A stretch of 64,000 bases of DNA from Candidatus Altimarinota bacterium (GTDB taxonomy: Bacteria; Patescibacteriota; Gracilibacteria; UBA4473): positions 416,571 through 480,570 of the forward strand of contig OZ246423.1 of the NCBI GenBank assembly GCA_965231215.1. The letters run 5' to 3'. How positions within the stretch are numbered: the stretch's first letter is position 1; each line of letters opens with the position of its first letter. The notes under the pieces were generated by a model. It saw only the letters and a list, made by a program, of their open reading frames with translations. It was not told the origin of the DNA and made no database searches. This document shows, one piece after another, positions 19,624-43,887 of this stretch. A program made the translations under genes and the position numbers.

Positions 19624-19881
19624 ATGGAAGTCCTAAAAAAAAGCCAAAAACTTCAAATGTTCATAAACTTTTTTTTAGCCCTGTTCTATTTTGTGGCTAT
19701 ACAATTTTTGATGGGAATCTTTGTCGTTTTGGCACTAAAAGTACAAGGGAAAGAAGCCTACGCGGCGTTAGAAGCCCTGGAAGAGATTGACGTTATAAGT
19801 TTTGTTTTAGGCGCTGTTATTGTAGGTATAGCTTGGTGGAAATTTAAATCTCAGTTTTTTATTCAACCTCACACACAATAA
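19624..19881 (+). CDS. small membrane protein (2 predicted TM), unknown function
   Basis: Track ORF of 85 aa with hydrophobic stretches FINFFLALFYFVAIQFLMGIFVVLAL and ISFVLGAVIVGIAWW. It overlaps the 3' end of the convergent gene by 23 nt. Confidence 0.45.
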   Translation: MEVLKKSQKLQMFINFFLALFYFVAIQFLMGIFVVLALKVQGKEAYAALEALEEIDVISFVLGAVIVGIAWWKFKSQFFIQPHTQ

Positions 19882-25175: not shown

Positions 25176-25433
25176 ATGAATAAATATCGAGCAATATCCG
25201 GTGTTTGCCTACTTGGTTCGGCCTTTTTATTTTATTCAGCTTTTTGTTTAGTACAATGCGGCGATAGCCATTGTCCTTGGCAGAAATCCGCTTACGCCCA
25301 GAATATAACGGTGGATGTTCCCACTGACTACAACAACCTCTGGTCAGGGAGAAACAGTCCGGAATTTTATACGACTACGCCAGGGGCTAACGTAACTATT
25401 GTCACTCGGGTAGTCACCGGCGGAGGACATTAA
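25176..25433 (+). CDS. cassette 1 small membrane/secreted protein (S1)
   Basis: Track ORF of 85 aa with an N-terminal hydrophobic segment (ISGVCLLGSAFLFYSAFCLV), then Cys residues and the core AQNITVDVPTDYNNLWSGRNSPEFYTTTPGANVTI, ending in GGGH. It is a paralog of 36980..37267. Confidence 0.7.
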   Translation: MNKYRAISGVCLLGSAFLFYSAFCLVQCGDSHCPWQKSAYAQNITVDVPTDYNNLWSGRNSPEFYTTTPGANVTIVTRVVTGGGH

Positions 25434-25449
25434 AATATTTTTGAAAACC

Positions 25450-27533: not shown

Positions 27534-30500
27534 ATGAAATTCTCAAATCTCGGTCTCTGGCGGGTGATATATGTGTTTAGTATCTGTTTTTTACTGGAAT
27601 CGTTAACCCTGGCACAAAACACAAATTTTGATACCAATGTAAATGTACAATACTCAAACCAAAACAATAGTGTCTCCACTCAATTTCCAGGAGATCGAAA
27701 TCAGGGAAGCTCAGCCCATGATCTAACCCCTTTGGGGCCGGTCGTTTCTCAGAGCACTACTACTAGTCAATCCGGAAGCGTAACCACAACCACCACAAGT
27801 GTCACCAGTCAAAGCCCCACTCTTTCGGGCATAAGTCAAAAAAACGAAGGTATTTGGTATGTTTCTTTCAGACGAGACAATGTCGGCGGAGTTCAAACCG
27901 GGAGTGAGATTGTAAGACACGACCTTACCCCGCCTCGGTGTAATAACCAATGGCCTCGCGGCCTGGATGGAGCCTGGACTAATAAGCCTATTGTTTTTGA
28001 TGCCGGAGATGCCGGTGTTTGTGTCGATCAATTAACCCAAAACGGAGTATTGCTCGATAACCAAGGTTCGGGTTGCCGAAAAGGGGAAACCATTAAAATT
28101 TTCGATCACGGGGAAAGTACAAATTTTTCAATTCAAGATAATGTCAACAATCTTAGCCCCACCGAATGCCAGACTCCCGAATCCAAAATTGACTGCTTGG
28201 TTCCTAGGTTAAATAGTGTTCAATTACAGCATAAAGGGTTGGGATTGCCAGTTGAACCCCTGGCTCAAAACCTACTACAGCCCAATACTTTCAGAGCTGA
28301 TGATGGAGCTTTGAATTTGATTATGAATGTTTTTGATAGTCCCCCTAATGCCACTTGTAACATTTCAGGTATTAATTGGAGCGAACTAAGTCACCAAAGT
28401 GAAATAAAACAAGAACAATATGACTTAGCCAATCTCATTAGTGAACAAGAACTCATAGAAAGAGAATTAGAACTACAAGAAGCCCAATTCATTACCGAGA
28501 ATGGAAACCTCATCCTGACTTTACTCAAAAATATTACCGCACAGATAGAAAAAAACCTATGGCAAGAAAGTATTAATGAACTTAACTCAGCCAACTCCGA
28601 AATAAAAACCAGACTAAGATCATTTAATGATGAAGTCCAAACACTCAATAATCTGAAATTAGAAAAACAAAAAATAAACCAAATTCAAGATTTATTACAG
28701 AACTCCGAATTTATAGATCCGGAAACCAAAAATCAACTAATCGAAAAGTTAAAAAAAGTAAATCCAGAATTTTTGGAATCAAGAATAGTAAATCACAATA
28801 TAGAAGTGCAAAAAATGGTTCAGGAATTTAGCCTTTTAGCTCGGAAGTTATCCGACTCATCAAAAATAGAACAAAACACGACTGTGCTTTCCGACCTTTT
28901 AGACCAATGGCAGGTGAGCATTACCAAAGATTATTCACACTTAATACCCAATTGGACCAGTGTCATTTTGGAAACAGACTCACTCATAAATCAACAATAC
29001 AACCAGCATTACTTACCACTCAAAAGTGCCTACCAAAATACCAACCTGAAAAGCAAACTTCAGGCTTTGCCCGAATATAATCCCGAAACCCATTTATCTC
29101 AGCTTCTGGAATCCTTTGAAAACGGAAGTGATAAGGCCAGACTAAATGTGATCGAAACGCGGGAAAATCTAAGCCAGCTCAATAGCGAGATGCATTCTGT
29201 GATTACCTACCTCAATAACTATCAGCCGGTAGACCAAAATTTTGATGAAAGGCCTATAGAAGACCTAATAAACAGAATCCAAATACTCAGCCTAAATGTG
29301 GAAACCCTAAACACAGACCTGGATGATGCCGTTGGAATACTCGGGAAGCCTCTATTGGACATTGACTATTACACACAGGAACCTACCGACGTGTTTATAT
29401 CAATACTTGACGAAACCATAAGCAAATCTCAACAAATTATTCAGGAAAGTACCCAAAAAATCACCAACAACAAAACACAAATTCAGGAAATTAAAGCACA
29501 AATCGAAACTAAAAACGAAGAAATTGCGGCCGTTTCAGCTCGTATTATCGAACTTCAAGAAGAAAGTATTGAGGATGACAGTGCTGACCTAAAACAACTA
29601 GAAATTTCTCACGTGGAGATTGAAAGAACTACCGGCCCAAGCAAAGTAGAAGAATTCATTAACCTATCTCCCACACCAGTCGGGGGGGATATTTATGAAT
29701 GGAATATTAATCAGTATACCTTCCCTGGAGAAAGTTATCCTATCTTCTCTCAGGCCGGAGACTACAAAATTACTCTTAGGATTTACGATAAAGCCGGTAA
29801 CCAGGTGACCCCTAACCGGATCGCTCATATAAGAATTCATCCGGCCGCCGCCCACGAAACCCAAACAGAAAACACTCTCACTCACGATTGTGATAAAACA
29901 AACCTCTGGGCCAACTACAGTGATCGATGTGATATTGATTTCACCGTCAAAGATGAATGGGAAAATCCTATTGCACAAAACTCTGCCCTAGAGATTTATG
30001 CCGTTACACAAGATACAGAAGGTTCTTACGACATCATTACTGGAAATGGGGAAAACTACCCCAACGGGCTCAGGTTTGACGCAGGGGTCAAAGTAGACGG
30101 TAAACACAAAGTTAATTGGAATAGCAGCACCAGTGGCGCTCAAAACATGAAAATGAGAGCCATACTCCCAACCGTAAATATCATTAACGGTATCGACGGA
30201 GCCGCTCTAATGTCTGTCAGTCGAAAACCACTCGCTCTAAATTTTATTTATCCACAAGTAAATGAGAGAGGGCTTGTGCAGCCTGAAACTCAGAACTTTG
30301 GCATTGATATCCACGCAAGATTCAAACCTTGGGTTTATCTACACCTAAGTGATAAACAAGATAACCAACCTCCAACCAGCCCTTGGGTCGTTCAAAAAGA
30401 TGTAGAAAAATGTATCTATACTTATGCTACAACCGAGTCTTCTTCTAGAAACTTGCCGAGAAACTTCAATGTATACCTCAAAGGCCATACAGACAATGGC

Positions 30501-32045
30501 GTGATTCTTTACAATAAAGATCTTAAATCACCCGAAAAAGGATACCCTATTACTTTCCGAAACATTATTGGGGTTTCCAGCGCTGAAAACGATGGAACCA
30601 CGGGTTCTCCTGCCGCAGAACAAACCTGTACACATCTAGGATTCTCTGGCGGTCAGGTAAACGTAAGCTCTGCTTATACTTCTAGAATTGAATATGTCGT
30701 AGATGGAAAACAAATTGTTCTACCAGGGGGTAACCTTGGAATGTTCGCAGGAGAAAGTTGTGTCTTTGCTGACATTTGTCCTGTGAGCTGCCCAGCAGAT
30801 CCTCCAGTAGGACACCGATGTCATATTTGTTCTCTCTACCCTGACCTCTGTTGTACAGACCCAGTGGCTTGTAATCCAATCTGTACCAGTCCGCCCTGTT
30901 CTGGAGTTCCTGTTTGTACTAATCCTCCTTGCTCTGGTTTAGCCGGAGGCGGTGATGACGACGACGATGATGACGACGACGATGACGATGATGATGACGA
31001 TTTTGCAGTTGAATGTGCCGGACTTACCCCTCAAGAATGTATCTGTCAGGTGATCCTCCCAGGCTCTTGTGTAGAAACTGAGTACCTAGAACCAGGCGCT
31101 GATATTGAAGGTGGTTTCCTCGCTTCAGACGATGAATTTGTGTACATCAATTCTCAAACTAAAACCATTGAAGTAAACGATGAAGCCGTTGGCCTTGGAG
31201 ACACTTTCGTAACAGACGTACGAGAAGATGTTAATAGAAATATCTACGATATCACTCGAGGTATCCCCGCTATTCCAAACAGTGGAAATACCATTGATCT
31301 AAAACTTCGAGATCTAGAACACAAAGGAATCACTTACATTGAGGGCGGTTTAGTCAGAATCGGTTTCCATAGTAATGGAGCTGTCGGGACTCAGAATAAT
31401 CCGGCCCAAATGTCAGGCGGAGCCCATACCCTCATCATCAAAGACGGGAACCTCCTAATCGCTGGTGACCTAGCTTATGACTCCATTGATGATTCATTCG
31501 GTATTGTGATGCTCAATACCAGCAGCGAAACTCCATTCTTAGCTGGACCTGACGTTGGTAATGTCTTCATCCACCATAACGTAAAACACGTAGTTGGAAA
31601 CATCTACGCTGATGGCTCTATCCTCAGTACTTCATCTCTCTCCGCTCCAACAGGCATAGAACCCGATATTGTAGCTGAACGAGAAAACATTGATGGAGTC
31701 CTAAAACAACAACTCATACTTACCGGCTCTATTCTTACAAGAAACACCCTTGGAGGCTCCCTTCTGGTAGAACCTAAAGATCCTTGGGGCAGAGTCGTCT
31801 CTATTGAAGACGCTCAAAAATATGACCTTCACTATATACGAAGATACCTTCCTCGGTTTGAGAGCCCCTCTCCTGGCGTGATTCTCCATCAAAACAAACC
31901 AGACTGTACTCAATTCGCTCCTGATGTCTGCTACGACAATAAACACTCCTTCATCATTAGAATTGACCCAAGAATTAGAGAAAATCCCCCTCCTGGGTTT
32001 AGCCTCTCAGAATCTGTTGATTTCCAATCTAATTTTGGGAACTGA
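27534..32045 (+). CDS. cassette 1 giant secreted protein (G1)
   Basis: Track ORF of 1503 aa with a signal peptide (VIYVFSICFLLESLTLAQ). After an S/T-rich linker comes a Cys-containing N domain (VRHDLTPPRCNNQWP...). This is followed by a ~400-aa coiled-coil-like region and PKD/Big-like beta domains (AGDYKITLRIYDKAGNQVT). The C-terminal part has a Cys/Pro-rich segment, 16 consecutive Asp and a beta-helix-like tail. Confidence 0.9.
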   Translation: MKFSNLGLWRVIYVFSICFLLESLTLAQNTNFDTNVNVQYSNQNNSVSTQFPGDRNQGSSAHDLTPLGPVVSQSTTTSQSGSVTTTTTSVTSQSPTLSGISQKNEGIWYVSFRRDNVGGVQTGSEIVRHDLTPPRCNNQWPRGLDGAWTNKPIVFDAGDAGVCVDQLTQNGVLLDNQGSGCRKGETIKIFDHGESTNFSIQDNVNNLSPTECQTPESKIDCLVPRLNSVQLQHKGLGLPVEPLAQNLLQPNTFRADDGALNLIMNVFDSPPNATCNISGINWSELSHQSEIKQEQYDLANLISEQELIERELELQEAQFITENGNLILTLLKNITAQIEKNLWQESINELNSANSEIKTRLRSFNDEVQTLNNLKLEKQKINQIQDLLQNSEFIDPETKNQLIEKLKKVNPEFLESRIVNHNIEVQKMVQEFSLLARKLSDSSKIEQNTTVLSDLLDQWQVSITKDYSHLIPNWTSVILETDSLINQQYNQHYLPLKSAYQNTNLKSKLQALPEYNPETHLSQLLESFENGSDKARLNVIETRENLSQLNSEMHSVITYLNNYQPVDQNFDERPIEDLINRIQILSLNVETLNTDLDDAVGILGKPLLDIDYYTQEPTDVFISILDETISKSQQIIQESTQKITNNKTQIQEIKAQIETKNEEIAAVSARIIELQEESIEDDSADLKQLEISHVEIERTTGPSKVEEFINLSPTPVGGDIYEWNINQYTFPGESYPIFSQAGDYKITLRIYDKAGNQVTPNRIAHIRIHPAAAHETQTENTLTHDCDKTNLWANYSDRCDIDFTVKDEWENPIAQNSALEIYAVTQDTEGSYDIITGNGENYPNGLRFDAGVKVDGKHKVNWNSSTSGAQNMKMRAILPTVNIINGIDGAALMSVSRKPLALNFIYPQVNERGLVQPETQNFGIDIHARFKPWVYLHLSDKQDNQPPTSPWVVQKDVEKCIYTYATTESSSRNLPRNFNVYLKGHTDNGVILYNKDLKSPEKGYPITFRNIIGVSSAENDGTTGSPAAEQTCTHLGFSGGQVNVSSAYTSRIEYVVDGKQIVLPGGNLGMFAGESCVFADICPVSCPADPPVGHRCHICSLYPDLCCTDPVACNPICTSPPCSGVPVCTNPPCSGLAGGGDDDDDDDDDDDDDDDDFAVECAGLTPQECICQVILPGSCVETEYLEPGADIEGGFLASDDEFVYINSQTKTIEVNDEAVGLGDTFVTDVREDVNRNIYDITRGIPAIPNSGNTIDLKLRDLEHKGITYIEGGLVRIGFHSNGAVGTQNNPAQMSGGAHTLIIKDGNLLIAGDLAYDSIDDSFGIVMLNTSSETPFLAGPDVGNVFIHHNVKHVVGNIYADGSILSTSSLSAPTGIEPDIVAERENIDGVLKQQLILTGSILTRNTLGGSLLVEPKDPWGRVVSIEDAQKYDLHYIRRYLPRFESPSPGVILHQNKPDCTQFAPDVCYDNKHSFIIRIDPRIRENPPPGFSLSESVDFQSNFGN
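29496..32043 (+). repeat. 2,548-bp near-identical direct repeat, copy 1 (3' part of G1)
   Basis: It matches 41293..43840 at a constant offset of 11,797 bp. The antisense track ORFs 29664..29978, 30682..30879 and 31701..31946 recur unchanged at +11,797. The differences I found are 29981 C vs 41778 T and 31976 T vs 43773 C, both synonymous. Confidence 0.95.
30954..31001 (+). repeat. (GAY)16 trinucleotide tract encoding poly-Asp in G1
   Basis: The tract is gat gac gac gac gat gat gac gac gac gat gac gat gat gat gac gat, flanked by GGG and FAVEC. Confidence 0.95.
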
Positions 32046-32152
32046 TACTTTTGAGGTTTAAGTGGCTCTGTGTCTGTTTGTGAAGCCTATTGTTTTCAAT
32101 CTTGTTTTTCTATACTAAAAAATTTCTTGTAGAATAAGGTCAGACATAAAAA

Positions 32153-32956
32153 ATGCCCAAATTTAGTATTATCACCATTAATTACGGAAACTCCCAAAAG
32201 ATTAAAAAGCTTTGGGAATCTCTGGCACAAAAATCACCAAAAAATGATTTTGAGTTTATTGTGGTAGACAACGCTTCTCCAAATGAAGACGGGGAAGCGA
32301 TTCGAGTATTTTTGGAAGACAAGCAAGAGTGCCACACAATTTTACTGCATAAAAACTTGGGGTTCGGTGGCGGGTATAAAGAGGGCGTAAAATTTGCACA
32401 AGGCGAGTATTTGGGAGTCATAAATCCAGATATAGAAGTAAAAGCAAACTGCCTAGAGGCACTTTTAGAAGTTCTAGAAAAAAAAGAAAACGCCGGAATT
32501 GTAGCCCCTCGGTTACTCAACCATGATGAAACACCTCAGCAAAATGCTCGAAAATTTCCCACTGTTTGGGTGATGTTTGGACGTCGACTCTCTAGTAAGT
32601 TTAAATGGGCCTATGATAGTGATCCTGCCTGGTACAAAACCGAAAAAGTTACCCCTGTAGACTGGGTACAAGGCAGTTTTATGTTGATGAAAACTAAATT
32701 TTTTACAGAAACACTACAAGGATTCGACCCTCGATTTTTTCTCTTTTTAGAAGATACTGATCTCTGCCGAAGAACTTGGGAAAAAGACAAAAGAGTCTTG
32801 CTAGTACCAGAAGCCCAAGCCTACCACGGAGAAGAAAGATTATCTGGCGGCCATTTCTGGAAAGCTATTTGGAAAAAAACTTTTTGGGTACACGTACAAT
32901 CTGCCTGGAAGTACTTTTTTAAATACCTATTTAAGAAAAAACCAAAGGTAAAATAA
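32153..32956 (+). CDS. family-2 glycosyltransferase
   Basis: Motifs seen are FSIITINYGN, FEFIVVDNASPNEDGE and FLEDTDLCRR (GT2 DxD/ED motifs). Its stop overlaps the next start by 1 nt (TAATG). Confidence 0.85.
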   Translation: MPKFSIITINYGNSQKIKKLWESLAQKSPKNDFEFIVVDNASPNEDGEAIRVFLEDKQECHTILLHKNLGFGGGYKEGVKFAQGEYLGVINPDIEVKANCLEALLEVLEKKENAGIVAPRLLNHDETPQQNARKFPTVWVMFGRRLSSKFKWAYDSDPAWYKTEKVTPVDWVQGSFMLMKTKFFTETLQGFDPRFFLFLEDTDLCRRTWEKDKRVLLVPEAQAYHGEERLSGGHFWKAIWKKTFWVHVQSAWKYFFKYLFKKKPKVK

Positions 32957-33816
32957 TGCCCATTATTGATACCCATAACCACATTTATTTCCCAGGTTTA
33001 GAGACTGAAACCGTTATTAAAGCCGCTCAAAAAGTTGGAGTGGGCAGACAAGTCCTCATTGGAATCGATGAGCTTTCCTGCCTCCAGGTAATCAATCTTA
33101 TTAAAAAGTATGAAGATCTTTACGGGACTCTTGGGCTCCATCCCTGTGACGTAGACCAACTAGGTAGGCGCAACGAGTTTCAAGACTATCCAGGGGCTGG
33201 CAATTACACATTCAAATGTCACACTCTCCCAGAGTACTTCCAGTGGATTGAAACGCTTTACAGCCAAAATTCTGACCCTATTGTAGGATTCGGGGAAACT
33301 GGATTTGACCGCTATCACCGCGATACTCCGACCCTAGTCAAACTCCAAGAAGAGAGTTTTGAGTCTCATTTGGAACTGTGCGTAAAACACCAAAAAACCT
33401 GTATAATTCACTGTCGAAAGGCCACCCAAAACTGTCTTAATTTTATGAAAAAACAGGCCCATAAATTTAAGTCTATAAACTTTATCTGGCACTGTTTTGA
33501 CGAAGACTTAAACACCGCAAAAGCGGTCATTGACCTAGGCGGGAAAATTGGTATCGGCGGTATCATCACCTACCCCAAATCTGAAACTCTTAGAGAAGTG
33601 GTAAAAGCCATCCCCCTCCAATCCCTCGTTACCGAAACCGATGCTCCATTTCTTACCCCTTACCAAGCCCGCAAAAAACATACAAAAAATTCACCCGAAT
33701 TTTTACCTGAAATTATCACTACTATCGCCCAAATCACACAGCAAAATCCAAGAGACTGTGCTGATAGGCTATATCAAAACGGATGTGAAATTTTCAACCT
33801 CAAAAATGGTGACTAG
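32956..33816 (+). CDS. tatD: TatD-family metal-dependent hydrolase/DNase
   Basis: Motifs seen are IIDTHNHI, GLHPCD, IHCRKA and VTETDAPFLTP, in 286 aa. Confidence 0.85.
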   Translation: MPIIDTHNHIYFPGLETETVIKAAQKVGVGRQVLIGIDELSCLQVINLIKKYEDLYGTLGLHPCDVDQLGRRNEFQDYPGAGNYTFKCHTLPEYFQWIETLYSQNSDPIVGFGETGFDRYHRDTPTLVKLQEESFESHLELCVKHQKTCIIHCRKATQNCLNFMKKQAHKFKSINFIWHCFDEDLNTAKAVIDLGGKIGIGGIITYPKSETLREVVKAIPLQSLVTETDAPFLTPYQARKKHTKNSPEFLPEIITTIAQITQQNPRDCADRLYQNGCEIFNLKNGD

Positions 33817-33883
33817 GGGCGGACTTGAACCGCCGACCTCCGGGTTATGAATCCGACGCTCTAACCAGCTGAGCTACCCAGTC
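33807..33883 (-). tRNA. tRNA-Met(CAT), elongator or lysidine-type Ile2 not distinguishable; CCA encoded
   Basis: The minus strand folds as a cloverleaf. The acceptor is GACTGGG/CCTAGTC (7 bp, one G-U), the D arm is GCTC-AGCTGGTTA-GAGC, and the anticodon loop is TTCATAA (CAT). The variable loop is AGGTC, the T arm is GGCGG-TTCAAGT-CCGCC, and the discriminator A is followed by CCA. G1-C72 argues against an initiator. It overlaps the tatD stop by 10 nt on the opposite strand. Confidence 0.9.
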
Positions 33884-33929
33884 ACGAACGCGATTGTATG
33901 ATTTTTGTGCCTTCGGTCAACTGACAATC

Positions 33930-34154
33930 TTAGTCTTTTTGAAAATTCTGTTTCCACACCGGAATAAGAATATACCAAATAAACAGATAGCTCAGAATGC
34001 CCCAAAAACACGACCACCAAAAAATCTGAATACTCAGTACATGTGGGAGCAGTACTTCTTGAAAAGGGTTCAGTCCTGTCGGGTCATTCCCTTCTAACCC
34101 CGGTAATACAACCAGAGGCAAATCTTGAAACCAACTTTTTTCATACATAGTCAA
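33930..34154 (-). CDS. small membrane protein with WWS motif (partner of the polytopic paralogs)
   Basis: Track ORF of 74 aa. Its C-terminal TM IFWWSCFWGILSYLFIWYILIPVWK resembles PLWWSIFATVSLVVIYVFLIEPYLK of 46211..46393. Both lie immediately downstream of an HTTM-like paralog. I prefer it over the overlapping + strand ORF 33894..34097. Confidence 0.45.
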   Translation of the reverse strand: MTMYEKSWFQDLPLVVLPGLEGNDPTGLNPFQEVLLPHVLSIQIFWWSCFWGILSYLFIWYILIPVWKQNFQKD

Positions 34155-34279
34155 AAATAAAAGAGTTTAAAAACAAAAAATTCTAGGATCTAAATTTTTT
34201 ATTAAATAAGCATATTCCCTTCATACGGGTTTGAAGAAAAAATGTTAAGGGCCAACGAAGTTTGTGGGTTTTCATCACT

Positions 34280-35539
34280 TTAATAATAAAGGTTTTTCAC
34301 AGGCCGTCCAACCGCTGGAGCGCCCCACTCTGGAGCGTTAATCCAGCTATTTCGACCAAACGGCTTGTATTCTAACGTGCAAAGATCAGGAACATCTACC
34401 ACCCTATAAAAAGGCCCTCCATTAATACTATGATCCAAAGTCCATGATTTTGGAGTTCCCCCATCAACACAGTACACACGTTTAAATTGAGAAAGTATCG
34501 TATAGGGATCACATCGTTGGCGAGCTGAATTAATACTTCCGTGATTCAGAACGGTTTCCTTCTCTTTTACCCGATAAACGCATTGATGATTCGCCTCAAA
34601 CATAAACTGCCCATAAAAGTTCCCTTCTAAAGTTATTTTTTCATCTCCAGGAATTAGGTGAGAAATCATCTGGGCTATAAATAAAAATACAATCACACAC
34701 CATCCTAGGATAGATTTTTTATCAATTGGAACCTGTAGTTTACTCAGCGGTTCATACGCAAAAAGAATAAGCAGTGGAACCCCCGCCATAAACGGAAATC
34801 TATACCCAACCAAAATAGCTGAATAGAGATGAAAGCCTACAAGAATCAAAAGTATCCCCGATCGCCAAATTTTATTCTGACTAAACAAGAACCACACGCC
34901 AAACAATTGAATAAAAATAAGCACATTGGTCCAAACTGGTGCCAGACTATCGGGGAAAATCGGCATTCCCAACTGGAGCGATGTAAAATAGGTCCCTAAT
35001 ATCCACCCAGGATGAAATTTCACAGCCGCTGCTAAAAAATAAAACCATATATCACTCAACCGTAAGAAGAACTTTTTGTGTGGTACACACAAAAATATAA
35101 GCGTAAAGATCGTATGGTATAGCTCAAAATTTGGTCGGGTATAAAAGGAAGTAAAAGTGATATAGCACTTCCATAAAAACAAAATCCAGAGAATTAAATA
35201 GACCCCTTTCCATCTTTGAAAATAAGCCAAATACAACCCTCCAAAGATAAATCCAAAGAGCCCAGAGTAAAAAATATTTTGGGAATACCCATCCGGCAGC
35301 TTGGAATCAATAATATACCAGTCTGTACAAGACTGAAAAAAAGGCCAGCATAATGGATTATGAGAGGTCCTTGCCGTATCAAACCCAATCCAATGCTCAA
35401 AACTCAACCAAAACCCAACTAATAAAAAAATCGCAAAAATTTGGAGTACTTTGCTGTTTTCAATTTCCTCTAGCCCAAACCATCGCTGGAAATATTGCCA
35501 GAAAAATAAATTTTCAAACCCTTTAATTAATTTTTGCAT
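34280..35539 (-). CDS. polytopic membrane protein, HTTM (vitamin-K-dependent carboxylase-like) family candidate, with Cys-containing C-terminal domain (paralog a)
   Basis: Track ORF of 419 aa with about 8 hydrophobic segments. Conserved blocks shared with the paralogs are CWPFF, PHKxFFLR, G(M/L)PIFPDS, FHLYS and IPGDE(K/R)xTxEGNFYGxxMFExNHQC. Further shared blocks are RCDPY, DHSxxGGPFYRVV..xDxCxLEYKxF and VGRPVxNxYY. The N-terminal pattern resembles the CxFPLL...NHSYL region of VKGC/HTTM. The CDS is solid; the family call is tentative. Confidence 0.6.
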   Translation of the reverse strand: MQKLIKGFENLFFWQYFQRWFGLEEIENSKVLQIFAIFLLVGFWLSFEHWIGFDTARTSHNPLCWPFFQSCTDWYIIDSKLPDGYSQNIFYSGLFGFIFGGLYLAYFQRWKGVYLILWILFLWKCYITFTSFYTRPNFELYHTIFTLIFLCVPHKKFFLRLSDIWFYFLAAAVKFHPGWILGTYFTSLQLGMPIFPDSLAPVWTNVLIFIQLFGVWFLFSQNKIWRSGILLILVGFHLYSAILVGYRFPFMAGVPLLILFAYEPLSKLQVPIDKKSILGWCVIVFLFIAQMISHLIPGDEKITLEGNFYGQFMFEANHQCVYRVKEKETVLNHGSINSARQRCDPYTILSQFKRVYCVDGGTPKSWTLDHSINGGPFYRVVDVPDLCTLEYKPFGRNSWINAPEWGAPAVGRPVKNLYY

Positions 35540-36789
35540 TAGCGGTAATAATTTTGTACTGGACGCCCTACAACTTTAGCTTCTGGTGGAAACTTAATCC
35601 ACTCGTTGTGAGAAAATATTTTATATTCCAAATCACAAATATCTGATTCCTCTACCACTCTATAAAAGGGGCCTCCATCAACACTATGATCTATTTTTAA
35701 AGAAACATCTTGATCGGAAGTGCAGTATTTTTGTTTAGCCTTAAACCACTCTTTATAAGGATTACATCGTCTTCGCGCATTTGCTCGGCTTCGAACCACC
35801 TCATCTGCCTCCCCCACCTTCAGCGTAATGCGACATTGGTGATTTGACTCAAACATATACAATCCATAAAAACTTCCCTCCATCGTTAACCGTTCATCTC
35901 CTGGGATAAAATTAGAAATCAACTGAGACACTAAAAAAAGCAAAGCTAACCCCCATCCCCACAAAGATTTTAAATCCAAAGGAGTTGCAATTTTTTTATA
36001 GTTAATCGTAAACAATACCAACAGTGCCGGAAATACGATTGATGGATAATGGTACTTTACAAAAATTATCGAATAGAGGTGAAATCCAATCATCACCCCC
36101 AAAGCCATAAATCGCCATTTTTTATCACTCAGCAAAAACCAGACTCCCATCATCTCAATCCCAATAACTAAATTAGTAAAAAATGGAGTCAAGCTGTCTG
36201 GAAAAATAGGGAGCCCCGTTTTAAGGGAAGTAAAATAAGATCCCAAAAGCCAACTGGGTTCTAGCTTTGAAGCAGTAGAAAGAAAGTAAAAAAAGACGAG
36301 ATAAAACCGAAGAAAAAATAATTTATGAGGAATAACCAAAAACCCCAAACAAAACATCAGATGATGATATTCGTAATTATTTATAAAATCCATCGATAAA
36401 CCTAGATGGTAGAGTTTCCATATAAAAAGCCCCACTAAACACATATGAGCCCAAACCCACTTTTTTTGGAAAAGAAAAATGCCTGCCAACAGCATAATCC
36501 CCAAAAGAAAAGCATAGAAAATTCCTTCACTATACCCATAAGGAAGAGCCTGCAGCATATACCATTCACCACAATCGGGCCAAAAAGGCCAGCAAACATG
36601 GTCTCCACTAAGCGCCGTTTCTTTCGTGGTATAAAAACGATGTGACCACCGCTTGAGCGTTACAAAATAACCAAGCAGCAGCACCCATCCAAAAAGCTGT
36701 AACACTTTAGAATTACCAATCTCTTGGACTGAAAAAAAACTTTCATATAGAGCTCTAGTTTTTCTGAAATACGGCACAAAAAAATTCAT
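35539..36789 (-). CDS. polytopic membrane protein, HTTM-like candidate (paralog b)
   Basis: Track ORF of 416 aa with the same conserved blocks as 34280..35539. Its stop overlaps the start of paralog a by 1 nt (TAATG), suggesting translational coupling. Confidence 0.6.
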   Translation of the reverse strand: MNFFVPYFRKTRALYESFFSVQEIGNSKVLQLFGWVLLLGYFVTLKRWSHRFYTTKETALSGDHVCWPFWPDCGEWYMLQALPYGYSEGIFYAFLLGIMLLAGIFLFQKKWVWAHMCLVGLFIWKLYHLGLSMDFINNYEYHHLMFCLGFLVIPHKLFFLRFYLVFFYFLSTASKLEPSWLLGSYFTSLKTGLPIFPDSLTPFFTNLVIGIEMMGVWFLLSDKKWRFMALGVMIGFHLYSIIFVKYHYPSIVFPALLVLFTINYKKIATPLDLKSLWGWGLALLFLVSQLISNFIPGDERLTMEGSFYGLYMFESNHQCRITLKVGEADEVVRSRANARRRCNPYKEWFKAKQKYCTSDQDVSLKIDHSVDGGPFYRVVEESDICDLEYKIFSHNEWIKFPPEAKVVGRPVQNYYR

Positions 36790-36979
36790 AAATTATAAAA
36801 ATAATAATATTTCAAAAACTTTTCTCAAAGACAAAACAACACAAATAAATTTAAAACAAAAACAAATATAAAAAGAATGATTTACAATATTTGCAATAAC
36901 ATTGATTTTACAATACCTATAAACCTCCCATAGAATTTCAGCAGAATAAAAAATCGTTTCTTAACCTCTTTTTTTTACC

Positions 36980-37267
36980 ATGGATAAAAACAGATTAATT
37001 GCTGGTGGCTATATTCTAGCCTCAATCGGTCTTTTTTATTCGGCTATTAACCTTTGGGTATGTCACGGTGGAACGGCTTGTGATGATGAAAGTATGGCAC
37101 AAGCGCAGAACATCAATATAAATGTTCCAACCGAATATGCTGGATGGTCTGGTCGAAATGATCCTTCCTTTTTCATTAACGCTCCTGGAGTAAGTGTCAC
37201 GATCCCTCCCCCAACTCAAGCCCCTAGCGGTTTCGGTGATGATGGTGATGGTGACGATGGTCACTAG
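36980..37267 (+). CDS. cassette 2 small membrane/secreted protein (S2)
   Basis: Track ORF of 95 aa. The segments IAGGYILASIGLFYSAINLWVC and AQNININVPTEYAGWSGRNDPSFFINAPGVSVTI align with S1. It has an acidic Gly/Asp tail ending in DDGH. Confidence 0.7.
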   Translation: MDKNRLIAGGYILASIGLFYSAINLWVCHGGTACDDESMAQAQNININVPTEYAGWSGRNDPSFFINAPGVSVTIPPPTQAPSGFGDDGDGDDGH

Positions 37268-37310
37268 AATCTAAACTCCATAAAACCTCATAACTATATA
37301 CTAACTAAGC

Positions 37311-39350
37311 ATGAATATTTCAAAAACCTGGTTCTGCTGGGTAGCCGTTGGCGTAATGCTCCCAACCTTTACCCTTACTAACGCTCAGGAACCTGATCTG
37401 GACCCTCAATCTCCAGAGCAGGCCTGTTTTACTCATCTAGCAAATGCGGCTTCCAATAGTAGTAAATTTTCTGGATTAGATCTTTCAAATGTCACAAAGA
37501 TTGCCGAAAACGGAAGAGGTCGTCGGGCTGAATCAAAGCCCTTTTCGGTCGCCACCTATGATGAATTCAAAACTATTGCCGAAACCCCAATCCCAATGCT
37601 AGGGATGCATATCGGACGATTTCCAAACAATACAGAAAGAATTCCTCATCGATACCGAATAGAACCTGAAATTCATAAAGCCAATCGTGGTAATGTACTC
37701 ATTGTAATTTATGGAGATGGTTCTCAAACTAGTATTGGCAATGTAGATGATGATCCAGAACTAGAATATATTGATGGATACTATTTAGATACTCAATATG
37801 CTACTTTTGGTAGATCTACAGATTTTGAATTCTCCTTTAAGTCATTTGATGGAGAACCAGCAAAAGGACAAGATTACCCATATGGAGCTCCCTATAAAGA
37901 TCTGAGGGAATATCTTATCTTTACCCATCACTTGAGTGATGCTAAGGGAGGAGATTTTGTAAGTTGTTCGCTTGTGAAACTGACTCCGTTGGGAGACTAC
38001 GCTCTTAAATCATACAGAGGCGAGAAGTCTGTACGATGGCAATACTACGGAGGAGACCGTGTAAATGGCACCGACTTTGCGCTTGAGGATGCACCTGCTA
38101 TTGACGGTCATCAGTTTAGAGTAGCCGATATTAGATTCTTAGTAGCCGCTAAAGAGGCGCTAGAAGATGGTGGCTATTCTTGGGCTAATGATTTGGCTCA
38201 TATTGATACTATCACGGTGCTTTATGACAACGGGAGCAACTTTTACAATGAATATGAAACTGGCCCTATCGCAGAAAGTGTAATGACGGATCCAAACAAT
38301 ATGGGGCTCAGTTACATGGAAATGCGAGCGTCTGTTTATCAGGCTATTATCGATCGTTTAGATCTAGGCATTATGGGAGAAGGAGACGTTGTGGGGCTTA
38401 GTGCTCAACTTTTAGCCAGTACGCTTGACGCTCCAGACAAACCAACAAGTCAAAAAGCTGGTCCAGTTATGGCTGAAGGACTTAAATTCGAAACTTTTCA
38501 AAAAATCAGAGAAATTGAAGATAAAACGACAAGAGATCTTCTATGGTCAGCTTCCATACCAGGACGAATTGACCGTCGGCTTGGTATCGACAATAAAACC
38601 GAAGATCAAATGAACGAATTTGAGAAAAAACGTGCCGCCAGCACGCTTAATAGACAAGCAGTATTAGAAAATATCGAATATGTTATCAACCAAGCGGATG
38701 ATGTGAGTGCCATTACTATTGATAATATTGAATATAAAGATATTGAATTTGGAGAATCGTTTATCCCAGCTAGTGATAGACGAGTTCGTGAAGTAGCAGA
38801 ATCTGCTTACGTTCAACCAGAGGTAGAGGCCTTAATAGCTGAAAAAGAAAGTGAAATTGCTAAAGCCGAAGCCCTCTCTGTGAATAAAGATGATGTGGCA
38901 ACTCAACAAGAAACTTTCACGCAAATAAAAAACATTGAAGATGACTACCATGGCAAAATCAATACCCTCTTTACCTTTGAAAACGAATACAAGGAACTAA
39001 AAATCACTTCTCTAGACATAGCCAACAAAAAAGAAAGAGACCACATCTCTGAATCTGAATATGAGGCTGCAGGACGAGATTTAATTAAGCATTTTGATGA
39101 GATTGTAAATAAAACTCAAGTCAAAGCTGAAGGCTTAATTACCCAAGAAAGATTAGAGGAACTAAAAGATGGACTTGTTGGAAAAAGCATCGCTACTCAA
39201 AACGTAAGCAAGCTACCAACCGCCTCAACAAAACCCCCAGTGGCTCCAGCCAAATTTACGCAAAATATGTATGGGGGAATGGCTTTAATCCTTATTATTT
39301 TGGCTATCTTCCTTGGGTGGCTTGGACTTTCACGCCTGAAAGGAAAATAA
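37311..39350 (+). CDS. cassette 2 exported protein with C-terminal TM anchor (M2)
   Basis: Track ORF of 679 aa with a signal peptide (WFCWVAVGVMLPTFTLTNAQ) and a C-terminal TM plus basic tail (GGMALILIILAIFLGWLGLSRLKGK). Blocks shared with M1 include DYPYGAPYxDxREYLxFTHHLS, RWQYYGGDRV, LDLGIMGEG and QLLASTL. Confidence 0.85.
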   Translation: MNISKTWFCWVAVGVMLPTFTLTNAQEPDLDPQSPEQACFTHLANAASNSSKFSGLDLSNVTKIAENGRGRRAESKPFSVATYDEFKTIAETPIPMLGMHIGRFPNNTERIPHRYRIEPEIHKANRGNVLIVIYGDGSQTSIGNVDDDPELEYIDGYYLDTQYATFGRSTDFEFSFKSFDGEPAKGQDYPYGAPYKDLREYLIFTHHLSDAKGGDFVSCSLVKLTPLGDYALKSYRGEKSVRWQYYGGDRVNGTDFALEDAPAIDGHQFRVADIRFLVAAKEALEDGGYSWANDLAHIDTITVLYDNGSNFYNEYETGPIAESVMTDPNNMGLSYMEMRASVYQAIIDRLDLGIMGEGDVVGLSAQLLASTLDAPDKPTSQKAGPVMAEGLKFETFQKIREIEDKTTRDLLWSASIPGRIDRRLGIDNKTEDQMNEFEKKRAASTLNRQAVLENIEYVINQADDVSAITIDNIEYKDIEFGESFIPASDRRVREVAESAYVQPEVEALIAEKESEIAKAEALSVNKDDVATQQETFTQIKNIEDDYHGKINTLFTFENEYKELKITSLDIANKKERDHISESEYEAAGRDLIKHFDEIVNKTQVKAEGLITQERLEELKDGLVGKSIATQNVSKLPTASTKPPVAPAKFTQNMYGGMALILIILAIFLGWLGLSRLKGK

Positions 39351-39375
39351 AACACAACCTTGCTAAAAATAAAAT

Positions 39376-42300
39376 ATGAATTTAAAAAAAATCCTACAGC
39401 TTTCAACGGCCGCTCATTTGATCCTAATGAGCGGCATTGTTTTAGCTCAAAGCAATACCACCAACATCCAAACCAGTATTACCAATACCTACACTAATAA
39501 TACCACTAGTGTTAATACCCAAATTATTGGCCGTAATGCTGGAGGTGCAAGTCCTCATGATCTGAGTTCAGCCTCACCAAACAGGCGTATCCCTATCGGA
39601 CTAGGTACACTCAGTCAAACCCCTCGACTGGATGGAACGAGTCAAAAACGAGAAGGCGTATGGTATGTATCGTTACGACGAAGTACGATTTCTGGTGTTC
39701 AAACTGGAAACCAAATTGTACGACACGATCTCACCCCTCCTCGGTGTAATAACCAATGGCCAATCGGACTCAATGGAGAATGGACTAACGCTCCCATTGA
39801 ATTTGATGCTGGAGATCCCGGCGTCTGTACTGATCAACTCACGCAAAATGGAGTCACTTATGATAACCGTGGAGCTGGATGTCGAAGCGGGGAAAAAGTC
39901 CGTGTGCTCCAGCATGGACAAAGTGTTAATTTTCCTATTACAGACAATGTAGGAAACCAAAAACCTGGTGGATGTACTACACCCCCTTCTAAAATTGATT
40001 GTCGACTCCCCATTGTAAGCTCACTTCTACTACAACATAAAGGGTTGAACCTTAACACGGAAACTCCGAGTACGAATGCCAGCACACCAAATACTTTCCG
40101 TGCTGATGATGGAGTGCTAAATTTGGTAATGGAACTTCGAGACGCCGAAGAATCTATTTCCTGCGGACTTTCTGGCATTAACTGGAATGAACTGAGCCAT
40201 GAAAGTGAAATTGGAGGTCTGCAATACCAATTGGCTAATCTCATTGATGAATTAGCCCTTATGGAAGACGAATACGACCTTAAAAAAGCAGAAGAAATTG
40301 TAGCCAAAGGGAATGTTATTGAATCTAGTATTGGAAAGCTAAGCCATGAGCTACAAAGAAACCTATGGAAACAATCTTTCCAAGCCTTAAATCTATCTGA
40401 TTCTATTGTAAAACAACCCCTTGCAGAGTTCCAATCTCAACTAAGCGTTTTAGGAGGGCGAACTATTGAGAAAGCCAATATGGATATCATTATGGAGATT
40501 CTTGAAAGTGAAAAATTTGATGACCTAGATCAAAGAGATGATTTTGTAAATGCCCTTCAAGACACGAATCTTGAGTTCTTAGAATCTCAAATCAGTAACT
40601 ATATATTCTTAGCTAATGATACCGTGAACAACTTCGACGTCCCCTCAAAAGGAGCTCCAGATGAGATTGAGGGATTCTCACGCCTCACAAACCTACTCAA
40701 TGAGTGGCAGGCTGAAATTACAGAAAATTATGCGCACGTAATCCCGAATTGGACAGAATCTATTCTTGCAACAGATACGGCCATAAACGACCAGTATAAT
40801 GATCCATACCTTCCCTACAAAGGCGCTCACGATGGAACGAATATTCAGGTTAAAATGGCTCAACTTTACGAGTATACCCCAGAAGATAATCTCCCCCAAC
40901 TCACGACTAACCTTGAGAGTGGAGCTAATCAATCCAGACTCAATATTGGAGAAGCCATTCTACAATTAGATCAACTTAATAGCGAGATGAGCTCTGTTAT
41001 TACTTATCTTAATAACTACGACCCAGTAGATGGAGAATTTGATCCAAGCCCCGTTGAAGAGCTTATTGATAGAGCCTTAAACTTTCAACTAAGTGTCGAG
41101 ACCGTTCAAGCAGATTTAGATGAGTTTTTAGGAATTCTTGGAAATCCTCTCTCTGAATTTGATTACTACAAAGTCCTCCCAACAGATGCTATTATTTCTA
41201 GCTTAGATAGTACTATCTCAGACTACCAAACAGAACTCACTTCTAATATTTTTGAGCTTGAAACCAAAAAAACTAATACCGTCGCTTTACTGGCACAAAT
41301 CGAAACTAAAAACGAAGAAATTGCGGCCGTTTCAGCTCGTATTATCGAACTTCAAGAAGAAAGTATTGAGGATGACAGTGCTGACCTAAAACAACTAGAA
41401 ATTTCTCACGTGGAGATTGAAAGAACTACCGGCCCAAGCAAAGTAGAAGAATTCATTAACCTATCTCCCACACCAGTCGGGGGGGATATTTATGAATGGA
41501 ATATTAATCAGTATACCTTCCCTGGAGAAAGTTATCCTATCTTCTCTCAGGCCGGAGACTACAAAATTACTCTTAGGATTTACGATAAAGCCGGTAACCA
41601 GGTGACCCCTAACCGGATCGCTCATATAAGAATTCATCCGGCCGCCGCCCACGAAACCCAAACAGAAAACACTCTCACTCACGATTGTGATAAAACAAAC
41701 CTCTGGGCCAACTACAGTGATCGATGTGATATTGATTTCACCGTCAAAGATGAATGGGAAAATCCTATTGCACAAAATTCTGCCCTAGAGATTTATGCCG
41801 TTACACAAGATACAGAAGGTTCTTACGACATCATTACTGGAAATGGGGAAAACTACCCCAACGGGCTCAGGTTTGACGCAGGGGTCAAAGTAGACGGTAA
41901 ACACAAAGTTAATTGGAATAGCAGCACCAGTGGCGCTCAAAACATGAAAATGAGAGCCATACTCCCAACCGTAAATATCATTAACGGTATCGACGGAGCC
42001 GCTCTAATGTCTGTCAGTCGAAAACCACTCGCTCTAAATTTTATTTATCCACAAGTAAATGAGAGAGGGCTTGTGCAGCCTGAAACTCAGAACTTTGGCA
42101 TTGATATCCACGCAAGATTCAAACCTTGGGTTTATCTACACCTAAGTGATAAACAAGATAACCAACCTCCAACCAGCCCTTGGGTCGTTCAAAAAGATGT
42201 AGAAAAATGTATCTATACTTATGCTACAACCGAGTCTTCTTCTAGAAACTTGCCGAGAAACTTCAATGTATACCTCAAAGGCCATACAGACAATGGCGTG

Positions 42301-43842
42301 ATTCTTTACAATAAAGATCTTAAATCACCCGAAAAAGGATACCCTATTACTTTCCGAAACATTATTGGGGTTTCCAGCGCTGAAAACGATGGAACCACGG
42401 GTTCTCCTGCCGCAGAACAAACCTGTACACATCTAGGATTCTCTGGCGGTCAGGTAAACGTAAGCTCTGCTTATACTTCTAGAATTGAATATGTCGTAGA
42501 TGGAAAACAAATTGTTCTACCAGGGGGTAACCTTGGAATGTTCGCAGGAGAAAGTTGTGTCTTTGCTGACATTTGTCCTGTGAGCTGCCCAGCAGATCCT
42601 CCAGTAGGACACCGATGTCATATTTGTTCTCTCTACCCTGACCTCTGTTGTACAGACCCAGTGGCTTGTAATCCAATCTGTACCAGTCCGCCCTGTTCTG
42701 GAGTTCCTGTTTGTACTAATCCTCCTTGCTCTGGTTTAGCCGGAGGCGGTGATGACGACGACGATGATGACGACGACGATGACGATGATGATGACGATTT
42801 TGCAGTTGAATGTGCCGGACTTACCCCTCAAGAATGTATCTGTCAGGTGATCCTCCCAGGCTCTTGTGTAGAAACTGAGTACCTAGAACCAGGCGCTGAT
42901 ATTGAAGGTGGTTTCCTCGCTTCAGACGATGAATTTGTGTACATCAATTCTCAAACTAAAACCATTGAAGTAAACGATGAAGCCGTTGGCCTTGGAGACA
43001 CTTTCGTAACAGACGTACGAGAAGATGTTAATAGAAATATCTACGATATCACTCGAGGTATCCCCGCTATTCCAAACAGTGGAAATACCATTGATCTAAA
43101 ACTTCGAGATCTAGAACACAAAGGAATCACTTACATTGAGGGCGGTTTAGTCAGAATCGGTTTCCATAGTAATGGAGCTGTCGGGACTCAGAATAATCCG
43201 GCCCAAATGTCAGGCGGAGCCCATACCCTCATCATCAAAGACGGGAACCTCCTAATCGCTGGTGACCTAGCTTATGACTCCATTGATGATTCATTCGGTA
43301 TTGTGATGCTCAATACCAGCAGCGAAACTCCATTCTTAGCTGGACCTGACGTTGGTAATGTCTTCATCCACCATAACGTAAAACACGTAGTTGGAAACAT
43401 CTACGCTGATGGCTCTATCCTCAGTACTTCATCTCTCTCCGCTCCAACAGGCATAGAACCCGATATTGTAGCTGAACGAGAAAACATTGATGGAGTCCTA
43501 AAACAACAACTCATACTTACCGGCTCTATTCTTACAAGAAACACCCTTGGAGGCTCCCTTCTGGTAGAACCTAAAGATCCTTGGGGCAGAGTCGTCTCTA
43601 TTGAAGACGCTCAAAAATATGACCTTCACTATATACGAAGATACCTTCCTCGGTTTGAGAGCCCCTCTCCTGGCGTGATTCTCCATCAAAACAAACCAGA
43701 CTGTACTCAATTCGCTCCTGATGTCTGCTACGACAATAAACACTCCTTCATCATTAGAATTGACCCAAGAATCAGAGAAAATCCCCCTCCTGGGTTTAGC
43801 CTCTCAGAATCTGTTGATTTCCAATCTAATTTTGGGAACTAG
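39376..43842 (+). CDS. cassette 2 giant secreted protein (G2)
   Basis: Track ORF of 1488 aa with a signal peptide (LSTAAHLILMSGIVLAQS). The N-terminal 639 aa are homologous to G1 but strongly diverged. The C-terminal 849 aa are identical to G1. Confidence 0.9.
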   Translation: MNLKKILQLSTAAHLILMSGIVLAQSNTTNIQTSITNTYTNNTTSVNTQIIGRNAGGASPHDLSSASPNRRIPIGLGTLSQTPRLDGTSQKREGVWYVSLRRSTISGVQTGNQIVRHDLTPPRCNNQWPIGLNGEWTNAPIEFDAGDPGVCTDQLTQNGVTYDNRGAGCRSGEKVRVLQHGQSVNFPITDNVGNQKPGGCTTPPSKIDCRLPIVSSLLLQHKGLNLNTETPSTNASTPNTFRADDGVLNLVMELRDAEESISCGLSGINWNELSHESEIGGLQYQLANLIDELALMEDEYDLKKAEEIVAKGNVIESSIGKLSHELQRNLWKQSFQALNLSDSIVKQPLAEFQSQLSVLGGRTIEKANMDIIMEILESEKFDDLDQRDDFVNALQDTNLEFLESQISNYIFLANDTVNNFDVPSKGAPDEIEGFSRLTNLLNEWQAEITENYAHVIPNWTESILATDTAINDQYNDPYLPYKGAHDGTNIQVKMAQLYEYTPEDNLPQLTTNLESGANQSRLNIGEAILQLDQLNSEMSSVITYLNNYDPVDGEFDPSPVEELIDRALNFQLSVETVQADLDEFLGILGNPLSEFDYYKVLPTDAIISSLDSTISDYQTELTSNIFELETKKTNTVALLAQIETKNEEIAAVSARIIELQEESIEDDSADLKQLEISHVEIERTTGPSKVEEFINLSPTPVGGDIYEWNINQYTFPGESYPIFSQAGDYKITLRIYDKAGNQVTPNRIAHIRIHPAAAHETQTENTLTHDCDKTNLWANYSDRCDIDFTVKDEWENPIAQNSALEIYAVTQDTEGSYDIITGNGENYPNGLRFDAGVKVDGKHKVNWNSSTSGAQNMKMRAILPTVNIINGIDGAALMSVSRKPLALNFIYPQVNERGLVQPETQNFGIDIHARFKPWVYLHLSDKQDNQPPTSPWVVQKDVEKCIYTYATTESSSRNLPRNFNVYLKGHTDNGVILYNKDLKSPEKGYPITFRNIIGVSSAENDGTTGSPAAEQTCTHLGFSGGQVNVSSAYTSRIEYVVDGKQIVLPGGNLGMFAGESCVFADICPVSCPADPPVGHRCHICSLYPDLCCTDPVACNPICTSPPCSGVPVCTNPPCSGLAGGGDDDDDDDDDDDDDDDDFAVECAGLTPQECICQVILPGSCVETEYLEPGADIEGGFLASDDEFVYINSQTKTIEVNDEAVGLGDTFVTDVREDVNRNIYDITRGIPAIPNSGNTIDLKLRDLEHKGITYIEGGLVRIGFHSNGAVGTQNNPAQMSGGAHTLIIKDGNLLIAGDLAYDSIDDSFGIVMLNTSSETPFLAGPDVGNVFIHHNVKHVVGNIYADGSILSTSSLSAPTGIEPDIVAERENIDGVLKQQLILTGSILTRNTLGGSLLVEPKDPWGRVVSIEDAQKYDLHYIRRYLPRFESPSPGVILHQNKPDCTQFAPDVCYDNKHSFIIRIDPRIRENPPPGFSLSESVDFQSNFGN
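41293..43840 (+). repeat. 2,548-bp near-identical direct repeat, copy 2 (3' part of G2)
   Basis: See copy 1. Identity starts at gcacaaatcgaaactaaaaacg and ends at the first base of the stop codon (TGA in G1, TAG in G2). The flanking sequence is unrelated. Confidence 0.95.
42751..42798 (+). repeat. (GAY)16 poly-Asp tract in G2
   Basis: It has the same sequence and length as 30954..31001. Confidence 0.95.
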
Positions 43843-43861
43843 AAACGAAAATAAAAAGAAA

Positions 43862-43887
43862 AGAGCAGGCCAAGGCCTGCTCTTTTC
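43862..43887. terminator. bidirectional terminator between convergent G2 and the RnfD-like gene
   Basis: The GC-rich palindrome agagcaggcc-aa-ggcctgctct (43862-43883) is flanked by an A-run upstream and tttt downstream. Confidence 0.7.

Follow-up and report, generated by a model that had tools for sequence, protein, structure and literature searches.

The 64,000-nucleotide (nt) stretch of contig OZ246423.1 from Candidatus Altimarinota bacterium that we analyzed, here called the window, is bacterial chromosome of 40% G+C and encodes NusA, PrsA, a MiaB-like enzyme, RF1, DAHP synthase, FtsH, YchF, DnaJ, and others. It contains two units of three genes each, a small (S), a medium (M) and a giant (G) gene, and the 3′ parts of the two giant genes form a near-exact direct repeat. 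Altimarinota is a phylum of the Patescibacteria (candidate phyla radiation [CPR]) group. The genes of the two S-M-G units and the repeat copies are as follows.

25176 to 25433, plus strand: S1, 85 amino acids (aa), with an N-terminal hydrophobic segment; 49% identical to S2
25441 to 27516, plus strand: M1, 691 aa, with a signal peptide and a C-terminal transmembrane (TM) anchor; 50% identical to M2
27534 to 32045, plus strand: G1, 1503 aa, with a signal peptide and no other TM segment; ends with a TGA stop codon at the family-conserved C terminus
29496 to 32043, plus strand: repeat copy A, the 3′ 849 codons of G1 and the first base of its stop codon; two mismatches to copy B
36980 to 37267, plus strand: S2, 95 aa, with one N-terminal hydrophobic segment
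37311 to 39350, plus strand: M2, 679 aa, with a signal peptide and a C-terminal membrane anchor
39376 to 43842, plus strand: G2, 1488 aa, with the architecture of G1; ends with a TAG stop codon
41293 to 43840, plus strand: repeat copy B, the 3′ 849 codons of G2 and the first base of its stop codon

We compared the two repeat copies base by base and searched the window against itself with blastn. The copies are 2,548 nt long and 99.92% identical at an offset of 11,797 nt; this block is the sole long repeat in the window by blastn, a repeat finder gave the same result, and there is no third copy within the 64 kb. Exactly two positions differ, 29981 C versus 41778 T (AAC/AAT, Asn) and 31976 T versus 43773 C (ATT/ATC, Ile), and both differences are synonymous. 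The first identical base opens codon 655 of G1 and codon 640 of G2 (..K|AQIETKNEEIAAV..), and in the 90 nt on the 5′ side of this junction G1 and G2 are only about 40% identical. At the other end, the T shared by the two stop codons (TGA in G1, TAG in G2) is the last identical base, and the DNA beyond it is unrelated. An earlier note on this DNA had described the repeat, its abrupt start and its end at the stop codon; its coordinates, offset and pair of synonymous differences proved correct to the base. The 5′ junction is also in register, since 23 residues separate a conserved ..TIS motif from the junction in both G proteins and the alignment is ungapped; with the 3′ end falling at the stop codon in both copies, register is preserved at both limits of the block.

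Outside the block, the two units have diverged along their entire length, as the same note had recognized. The 5′ halves of the G genes, 654 codons in G1 and 639 in G2, are homologous and encode proteins 46 to 47% identical, and the S and M pairs, all real genes, show the comparable divergence listed above. Using the Nei-Gojobori method, we found a saturated proportion of synonymous differences (pS, 0.79) in both M and the 5′ half of G; within the block, synonymous divergence (dS) was 0.0035 and nonsynonymous divergence (dN) was 0. We then considered four-fold degenerate sites in codons with conserved amino acids, for which base composition predicts 0.28 identity at saturation. All 382 of 382 such sites were identical in the block, while every subwindow of M and of the G 5′ half, including the last 14 sites before the junction, gave values of 0.17 to 0.37. 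On the strength of this uniform saturation, we rejected earlier conversion events that might have left partly decayed traces in M or the G 5′ half. Outside the block, exact matches between the units reach 23 nt at most. Synonymous sites of G1 and G2 are thus either near zero in divergence (block) or saturated (elsewhere), with nothing in between, and a chance origin of the identity of the block is excluded.

To place the pair in its family, we scanned GTDB species genomes with the M1/M2 alignment and found one relative, "MAG: Candidatus Altimarinota bacterium" (OZ245819.1; 1,295,315 bp), a metagenome-assembled genome (MAG). The region is syntenic in the two genomes, and the housekeeping proteins of the MAG are 76 to 90% identical to those of the window (NusA, 89.5%; RF1, 77%). 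With the 849-aa product of the block (the C module) as the query, we also searched 1.84 billion representative proteins exhaustively with HMMER and obtained 334 homologs at an E value of ≤1e-3. Five of these (P0001, P0002, P0003, P0004, and P0006) are full-length G-like proteins. About 50 are proteins of ~700 to 800 aa that consist of a leader and the module only, i.e., a stand-alone secreted form, and in many others the module, or only its last ~310 aa, forms the extreme C terminus and follows different N-terminal regions, some with Calx-beta or PKD/Ig (immunoglobulin) domains. A scan of metagenome contigs with clean C-module motifs gave no match.

Two other genomes hold pairs of G paralogs. 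P0001 and P0002 both lie at the syntenic locus of the related MAG, each behind a separate pair of S and M genes, with the two units in divergent orientation. P0003 and P0004 are in tandem on a contig of GCA_054001735.1, where S and M genes lie 5′ of P0003 and P0004 lacks an upstream M. On a further contig (ERZ6864290), a 696-aa gene stands directly 5′ of a 1444-aa G homolog, and the M proteins match there at 29% (tblastn); homologous small genes occur 5′ of M at the relatives' loci L002, L003, and L005. The related MAG also holds a third M homolog, of 647 aa (L001, 9992 to 11935; about 505 to 507 kb of OZ245819.1), which is about 130 kb away from the S-M-G locus and has no G homolog within 10 kb.

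Neither of these pairs contains an identical block. Identity per 100-aa window is 17 to 46% in the N half and 38 to 65% in the C half of P0001/P0002, and 36 to 61% and 37 to 63%, respectively, for P0003/P0004. In trimmed alignments, the N half and the C module are 28 and 50% identical in P0001/P0002, 45 and 53% in P0003/P0004, and 47 and 100% in G1/G2. Because unconverted pairs reach 50 to 53% in the module, constraint would be expected to leave G1 and G2 about 55% identical there, and the observed 100% is a signal of recombination. G1 and G2 are thus paralogs otherwise diverged far beyond constraint that share a block of near identity, and their segment histories are discordant relative to the pairs of both other genomes. 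Since those pairs are diverged along their whole length, the homogenization is specific to the lineage of the window and not family-wide. The earlier note had named uniform divergence along related pairs as the observation that would speak against gene conversion. That pattern is present in both other genomes with pairs; it removes homogenization as a trait of the whole family and leaves conversion in this genome standing.

In position, P0001 (next to TatD/GT2/PrsA) is the counterpart of G1 and P0002 (RF1-DAHP synthase side) that of G2; RF1 immediately adjoins P0002 in the related MAG, and in the window RF1-DAHP synthase lies beyond G2 after two further genes. By sequence, G1 and G2 are closest to each other, as are M1 and M2, which points to either an earlier homogenization of the whole unit in this lineage or a re-duplication of one unit. 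Between these two closest genomes, the S-M-G cassettes and the C module are 27 to 47% identical, compared with 76 to 90% for housekeeping proteins; for the G N halves the range is 27 to 32% and for M it is 30 to 39%. This faster evolution of G, M, and S than of their neighbors suggests a strong diversifying pressure on surface proteins.

We next examined the architecture of the G proteins from sequence and from AlphaFold2 (AF2) models. The segments of G1 are as follows.

27789 to 28403, plus strand: conserved N-terminal beta-rich domain (about aa 86 to 290), with the motifs VRHDLTPPRC, SKIDC, FRADDG, and SGINW; part of the diverged half
28404 to 29603, plus strand: long helical/coiled-coil region (about aa 291 to 690), from sequence and from helices in AF2 models
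29733 to 30785, plus strand: tandem Ig-like beta-sandwich array (about aa 734 to 1084), from AF2
30786 to 31055, plus strand: Cys/Pro-rich linker containing a 16-residue poly-Asp, predicted to be disordered
31056 to 32042, plus strand: conserved C-terminal beta-rich domain of about 330 aa, found at the very end of more than 300 proteins and without a Pfam or NCBIfam model

The equivalent N-terminal domain of G2 lies at about 39586 to 40200, and the identical Ig-like array lies at 41530 to 42582. The AF2 model of the N-terminal domain and the long helix that follows it had a predicted local distance difference test score (pLDDT) of 83, and the domain had no fold match in PDB at an E value below 0.1. 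For the 849-aa C module, modeled with 55 homologs (mean pLDDT, 75), AF2 predicted a short helix that extends the coiled coil, beta-sandwiches at module residues ~80 to 430, a disordered linker, and a confident beta-rich domain at ~575 to 840. Foldseek matched this model to tandem Ig-like arrays in PDB that belong to adhesins and S-layer proteins of bacteria, among them InvE (5n40), FdeC (4e9l), SbsB, and PrgB, and a family profile matched the FdeC 4e9l sequence at an E value of 1.2e-9. The fold search with the whole module was dominated by the Ig array, and no fold was obtained for the last ~330-aa domain. The poly-Asp tract of the linker is encoded by 16 mixed GAT/GAC codons (G1, 30954 to 31001; G2, 42751 to 42798) and is preceded by a Cys/Pro stretch, CPVSCPADPP...CTNPPCSG; the closest homologs, P0001 to P0005, have Cys/Pro-rich linkers without poly-Asp.

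The boundary of identity at 29496 falls in the last turns of the G1 coiled coil. The block therefore matches an autonomous evolutionary module plus about 35 to 70 extra coiled-coil codons. This arrangement does not fit the "variable head, constant stalk" suggested in the earlier note: the would-be stalk, a coiled coil of ~400 residues, belongs to the diverged half together with the beta-rich N-terminal domain, and the constant part is an Ig-like array with a globular C-terminal domain, which is also a stand-alone secreted protein in many relatives.

The S-M-G trio is conserved, and none of its member proteins has a Pfam or NCBIfam model; the same holds for the C module of ~750 aa, which more than 300 proteins carry. 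Nothing above threshold was found for G, M, S, or the ~420-aa paralogs described below in Pfam, PADLOC, or NCBIfam, and phmmer found no match among PDB sequences for either G half or for the M profile. A role for S and M as restriction-modification subunits was rejected, as both are secreted or membrane proteins. The products of the S-M-G cassettes and the C-module family resemble adhesins of the cell surface, in organisms considered to be host attached, and the trio as a whole looks like an undescribed surface-protein cassette.

We consider it likely that the block is an intragenomic homologous gene conversion tract, i.e., a case of concerted evolution between paralogs in direct orientation 11.8 kb apart. 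Of the two processes proposed in the earlier note, "gene conversion or cassette exchange," conversion gives the best explanation; cassette exchange is unsupported, because both G genes are full length, each comes with S and M genes of its own, and silent fragments are absent from the window. With identities of 49% for S, 50% for M, and 47% for the G 5′ half, the parts are similarly diverged, as would be expected from one old duplication of the whole unit, in which the small S product is a membrane protein, the medium M product is membrane anchored, and the giant G product is secreted and adhesin-like. After this duplication, S, M, and the 5′ 640 to 654 codons of G would have diverged to synonymous saturation, and the 3′ 849 codons of G would have been overwritten copy on copy by RecA-type noncrossover recombination, the latest overwriting having taken place within about 0.35% synonymous divergence. 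Since independently evolved regions retain no homology of the length used by RecA (at most 23 nt), the copies of the module must have stayed similar, and we infer from this that conversion was recurrent and not one late event. Junctions that are in register, in frame, and free of indels fit homologous exchange and not illegitimate joining. The tract would stop where heterology blocks heteroduplex extension, at its 5′ side in the low-constraint, fast-evolving end of the coiled coil and at its 3′ side where the duplicated homology ends, at the stop codon. If the direct repeats recombined by crossover, an 11.8-kb segment that contains tRNA-Met, TatD, GT2, and S2-M2 would be lost, and this loss may be why only noncrossover products are seen.

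Several observations weigh against gene conversion. Both related genomes with paralog pairs show no homogenization, so recurrent conversion is no general habit of the family, and the two near-identical copies are known from assembled sequence alone. There is no gradient of divergence at the 5′ junction, where identity drops from 100% to about 40% within one base; as tract ends vary in a simple conversion model, a short zone of intermediate similarity would be predicted there. Neither RecA nor another recombination gene was seen in the window, with the exception of RuvX (49404 to 49856), and the donor and recipient copies are indistinguishable.

The missing intermediate zone is the main point in favor of a different origin, a single recent nonhomologous replacement or partial re-duplication in which the 3′ 2.5 kb was copied or fused by template switching or illegitimate recombination and had no long history of conversion. 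Both edges of the block are razor-sharp and lack flanking nucleotide homology, four-fold sites are saturated right up to the junction, and unconverted modules would be about 50 to 55% identical, too diverged for RecA to initiate. However, both junctions lie at homologous, in-frame positions, which would be improbable for two illegitimate joins unless strong selection had filtered them, and neither carries microhomology or filler. We regard a single replacement as unlikely.

We also weighed an artifact of assembly or polishing, in which one C module, or two less similar ones, was made 99.9% alike by repeat resolution or by polishing with cross-mapped reads. The sequence is probably metagenome assembled, its closest relative is a MAG, the window's own proteins have no exact entry in the protein collections, and the dependence on assembled sequence already mentioned bears on this explanation as well. 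Simple double pasting is contradicted by the two single-nucleotide differences that distinguish the copies, and a 2.5-kb exact repeat normally breaks short-read assembly rather than being duplicated. Moreover, both copies continue in frame to a family-typical C terminus and then into different DNA, and because the DNA 3′ of each copy is unique and syntenic with the relative, both junctions stand in a genuine genomic context. Polishing can homogenize only copies that cross-map, so a strong similarity confined to the block would still be real. For these reasons, an artifact appears distinctly unlikely.

Programmed variation, by shufflon-like cassette exchange or a diversity-generating retroelement, with the identical block as the recombination substrate for N-terminal swaps, is very unlikely: although variation could be useful to adhesin-like surface proteins of a probably host-dependent CPR bacterium and direct repeats could mediate exchange, no site-specific recombinase, invertase, or reverse transcriptase was present among the window open reading frames (ORFs) scanned against Pfam, the window holds no silent partial cassettes, the differences are C/T and T/C and not adenine directed, direct repeats that recombine yield deletions and not swaps, and relatives lack the identical block.

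Specific element types were rejected as well. The earlier note had judged the repeat not to be a mobile element, and we agree with this assessment: there is no Pfam match to a transposase in or beside the block, no inverted repeats at its ends, and no extra copy in the window, and the block is an in-frame C module only, which rules out an insertion sequence or transposon. A diversity-generating retroelement does not fit a 2.5-kb repeat that lacks an adenine pattern and has no reverse transcriptase among the scanned ORFs. A silent-cassette locus was rejected because tblastn of G and M against the window found only the two complete genes and because the shared part is the constant one.

Gene conversion of this kind has well-known counterparts. 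In tufA and tufB of Salmonella and Escherichia coli, near identity is kept by recombination and ends where the homology of the flanks ends. Conversion of the tuf genes, which lie in opposite orientations, extends across the entire coding sequence, whereas in the direct pair G1/G2 it would cover only the 3′ 56% of the gene. In Neisseria pilE/pilS and Borrelia vlsE, gene conversion likewise acts on surface-protein genes, and variable segments are moved from promoterless silent copies into one expression site. G1 and G2 differ from these systems in that the segment common to the two complete genes is the constant one and in that there are no silent copies in the window.

The closest parallel is found in Helicobacter pylori babA/babB and homA/homB, in which 3′ segments are under concerted evolution while 5′ and middle segments diverge (PMC3960876, reviewing Pride and Blaser, 2002). 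As with G1 and G2, these are paralogous adhesin genes in one genome with a near-identical 3′ segment and sharp mosaic limits. In H. pylori the intragenomic conversion is RecA dependent; for G1/G2, recombination is deduced from the sequence. The H. pylori genes lie at distant loci and form chimeras that change the binding phenotype, whereas G1 and G2 are 11.8 kb apart in direct orientation. The nonconverted part of G1/G2 is saturated and that of the H. pylori genes is merely allelic; the G1/G2 tract of 2.5 kb spans a whole multidomain module, the proteins are unrelated to those of H. pylori (no beta-barrel), and the organism is a CPR bacterium. The tandem Ig-like array of the converted module is a feature in common with invasin/intimin-type adhesins (FdeC 4e9l and InvE 5n40). 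Unlike these, G1 and G2 have no beta-barrel anchor, LysM domain, or Pfam signature of that family, and the rest of G (the N-terminal domain, the 400-aa coiled coil, the poly-Asp linker, and the C-terminal domain) has no Pfam, NCBIfam, or PDB match. The resemblance is therefore at the level of a common domain and not of a family.

The DNA between and beyond the two units contains the following features.

32153 to 36789: unique DNA that separates the two S-M-G units
32153 to 32956, plus strand: GT2 glycosyltransferase
32956 to 33816, plus strand: TatD
33807 to 33883, minus strand: tRNA-Met (CAT), overlapping the 3′-terminal 10 nt of the oppositely oriented TatD ORF
34280 to 35539 and 35539 to 36789, minus strand: two paralogous multi-TM proteins of ~420 aa, without a Pfam match
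43858 to 43887: terminator-like hairpin with a perfect 14-bp stem and flanking T/A runs, 16 nt past the G2 stop codon
44941 to 46209, plus strand: a third multi-TM paralog of ~420 aa, 3′ of G2

The three ~420-aa paralogs are 44 to 47% identical to one another, and each has a Cys-containing C-terminal domain. The related MAG has one ortholog of these proteins, 58% identical to the third paralog, between its two S-M-G units, and this multi-TM family may be functionally linked to the S-M-G cassette.

We also considered the genetic code of the organism, since Gracilibacteria commonly read UGA as glycine (PMC11452946). Under code 11, 88.5% of the window lies in ORFs, some of them TGA free and 943 to 1503 aa long. 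The RF1 gene ends at a TGA after 354 aa, its ortholog in the related MAG having 355 aa, and the TGA of G1 sits where G2 has TAG and where homologs end. ORF coverage, the RF1 end, and the ends of G1, G2, and their homologs indicate that TGA is a stop codon here, and a read-through of the G1 TGA under code 25 (UGA = Gly) was rejected on the same grounds. The release factor gene (46462 to 47526, minus strand) is of the RF1 type, with a PTT tripeptide at the PxT position and no SPF. TGA serves as the stop codon of 5 of the 42 window ORFs; since an RF1-type factor is encoded and TGA stops are in use, RF2 would have to be encoded outside the window.

Other features of the window lie apart from the S-M-G locus. 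A 1019-aa protein with a type IV secretion system coupling-protein/TraG-like ATPase domain (1857 to 4916, minus strand) is encoded next to a 1100-aa signal-peptide protein with DUF11/DUF7507 repeats (5096 to 8398, minus strand), and this pair may be another surface or secretion locus. Two adjacent ORFs on the plus strand (8734 to 11565 and 11631 to 13766), of 943 and 711 aa and without a Pfam match, have products with a common C-terminal region of ~130 aa at 43% identity. An imperfect tandem duplication of ~100 nt (1558 to 1774; 121 nt aligned, 83%, offset 99 nt) lies within an ORF without a Pfam match (768 to 1790). Riboflavin kinase and 5-formyltetrahydrofolate cyclo-ligase are encoded in one ORF (19859 to 20755, minus strand), a fusion also present in the related MAG (L002, 20354 to 21247).

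The process favored here, segmental concerted evolution of paralogous surface-protein genes, is textbook knowledge, and this locus is a new example of it. The case is unusually clean, with synonymous divergence that is either zero or saturated and with single-base boundaries that match a protein module, and it is set in a reduced-genome CPR bacterium, where intragenomic recombination is little documented. For annotators and assemblers, a 2.5-kb near-exact repeat at such a locus is a hazard. More tentatively, and as a rather unlikely possibility, the three S-M-G genes could make up a so far undescribed surface-appendage cassette in Altimarinota/Peregrinibacteria-like CPR bacteria, one that provides two different mountings for one effector. 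If so, M and the coiled-coil half of G would be cognate, codiverging anchor pairs, as S, M, and the N half of G are all 47 to 50% identical, and the distal Ig array and C-terminal module would form the functional end, with selection maintaining the conversion that preserves its identity on the two anchors. The adjacent multi-TM 420-aa paralogs, which occupy the same position in the relative, might join the same apparatus. The S-M-G cassette and the C-module family are a more promising lead than the repeat itself.

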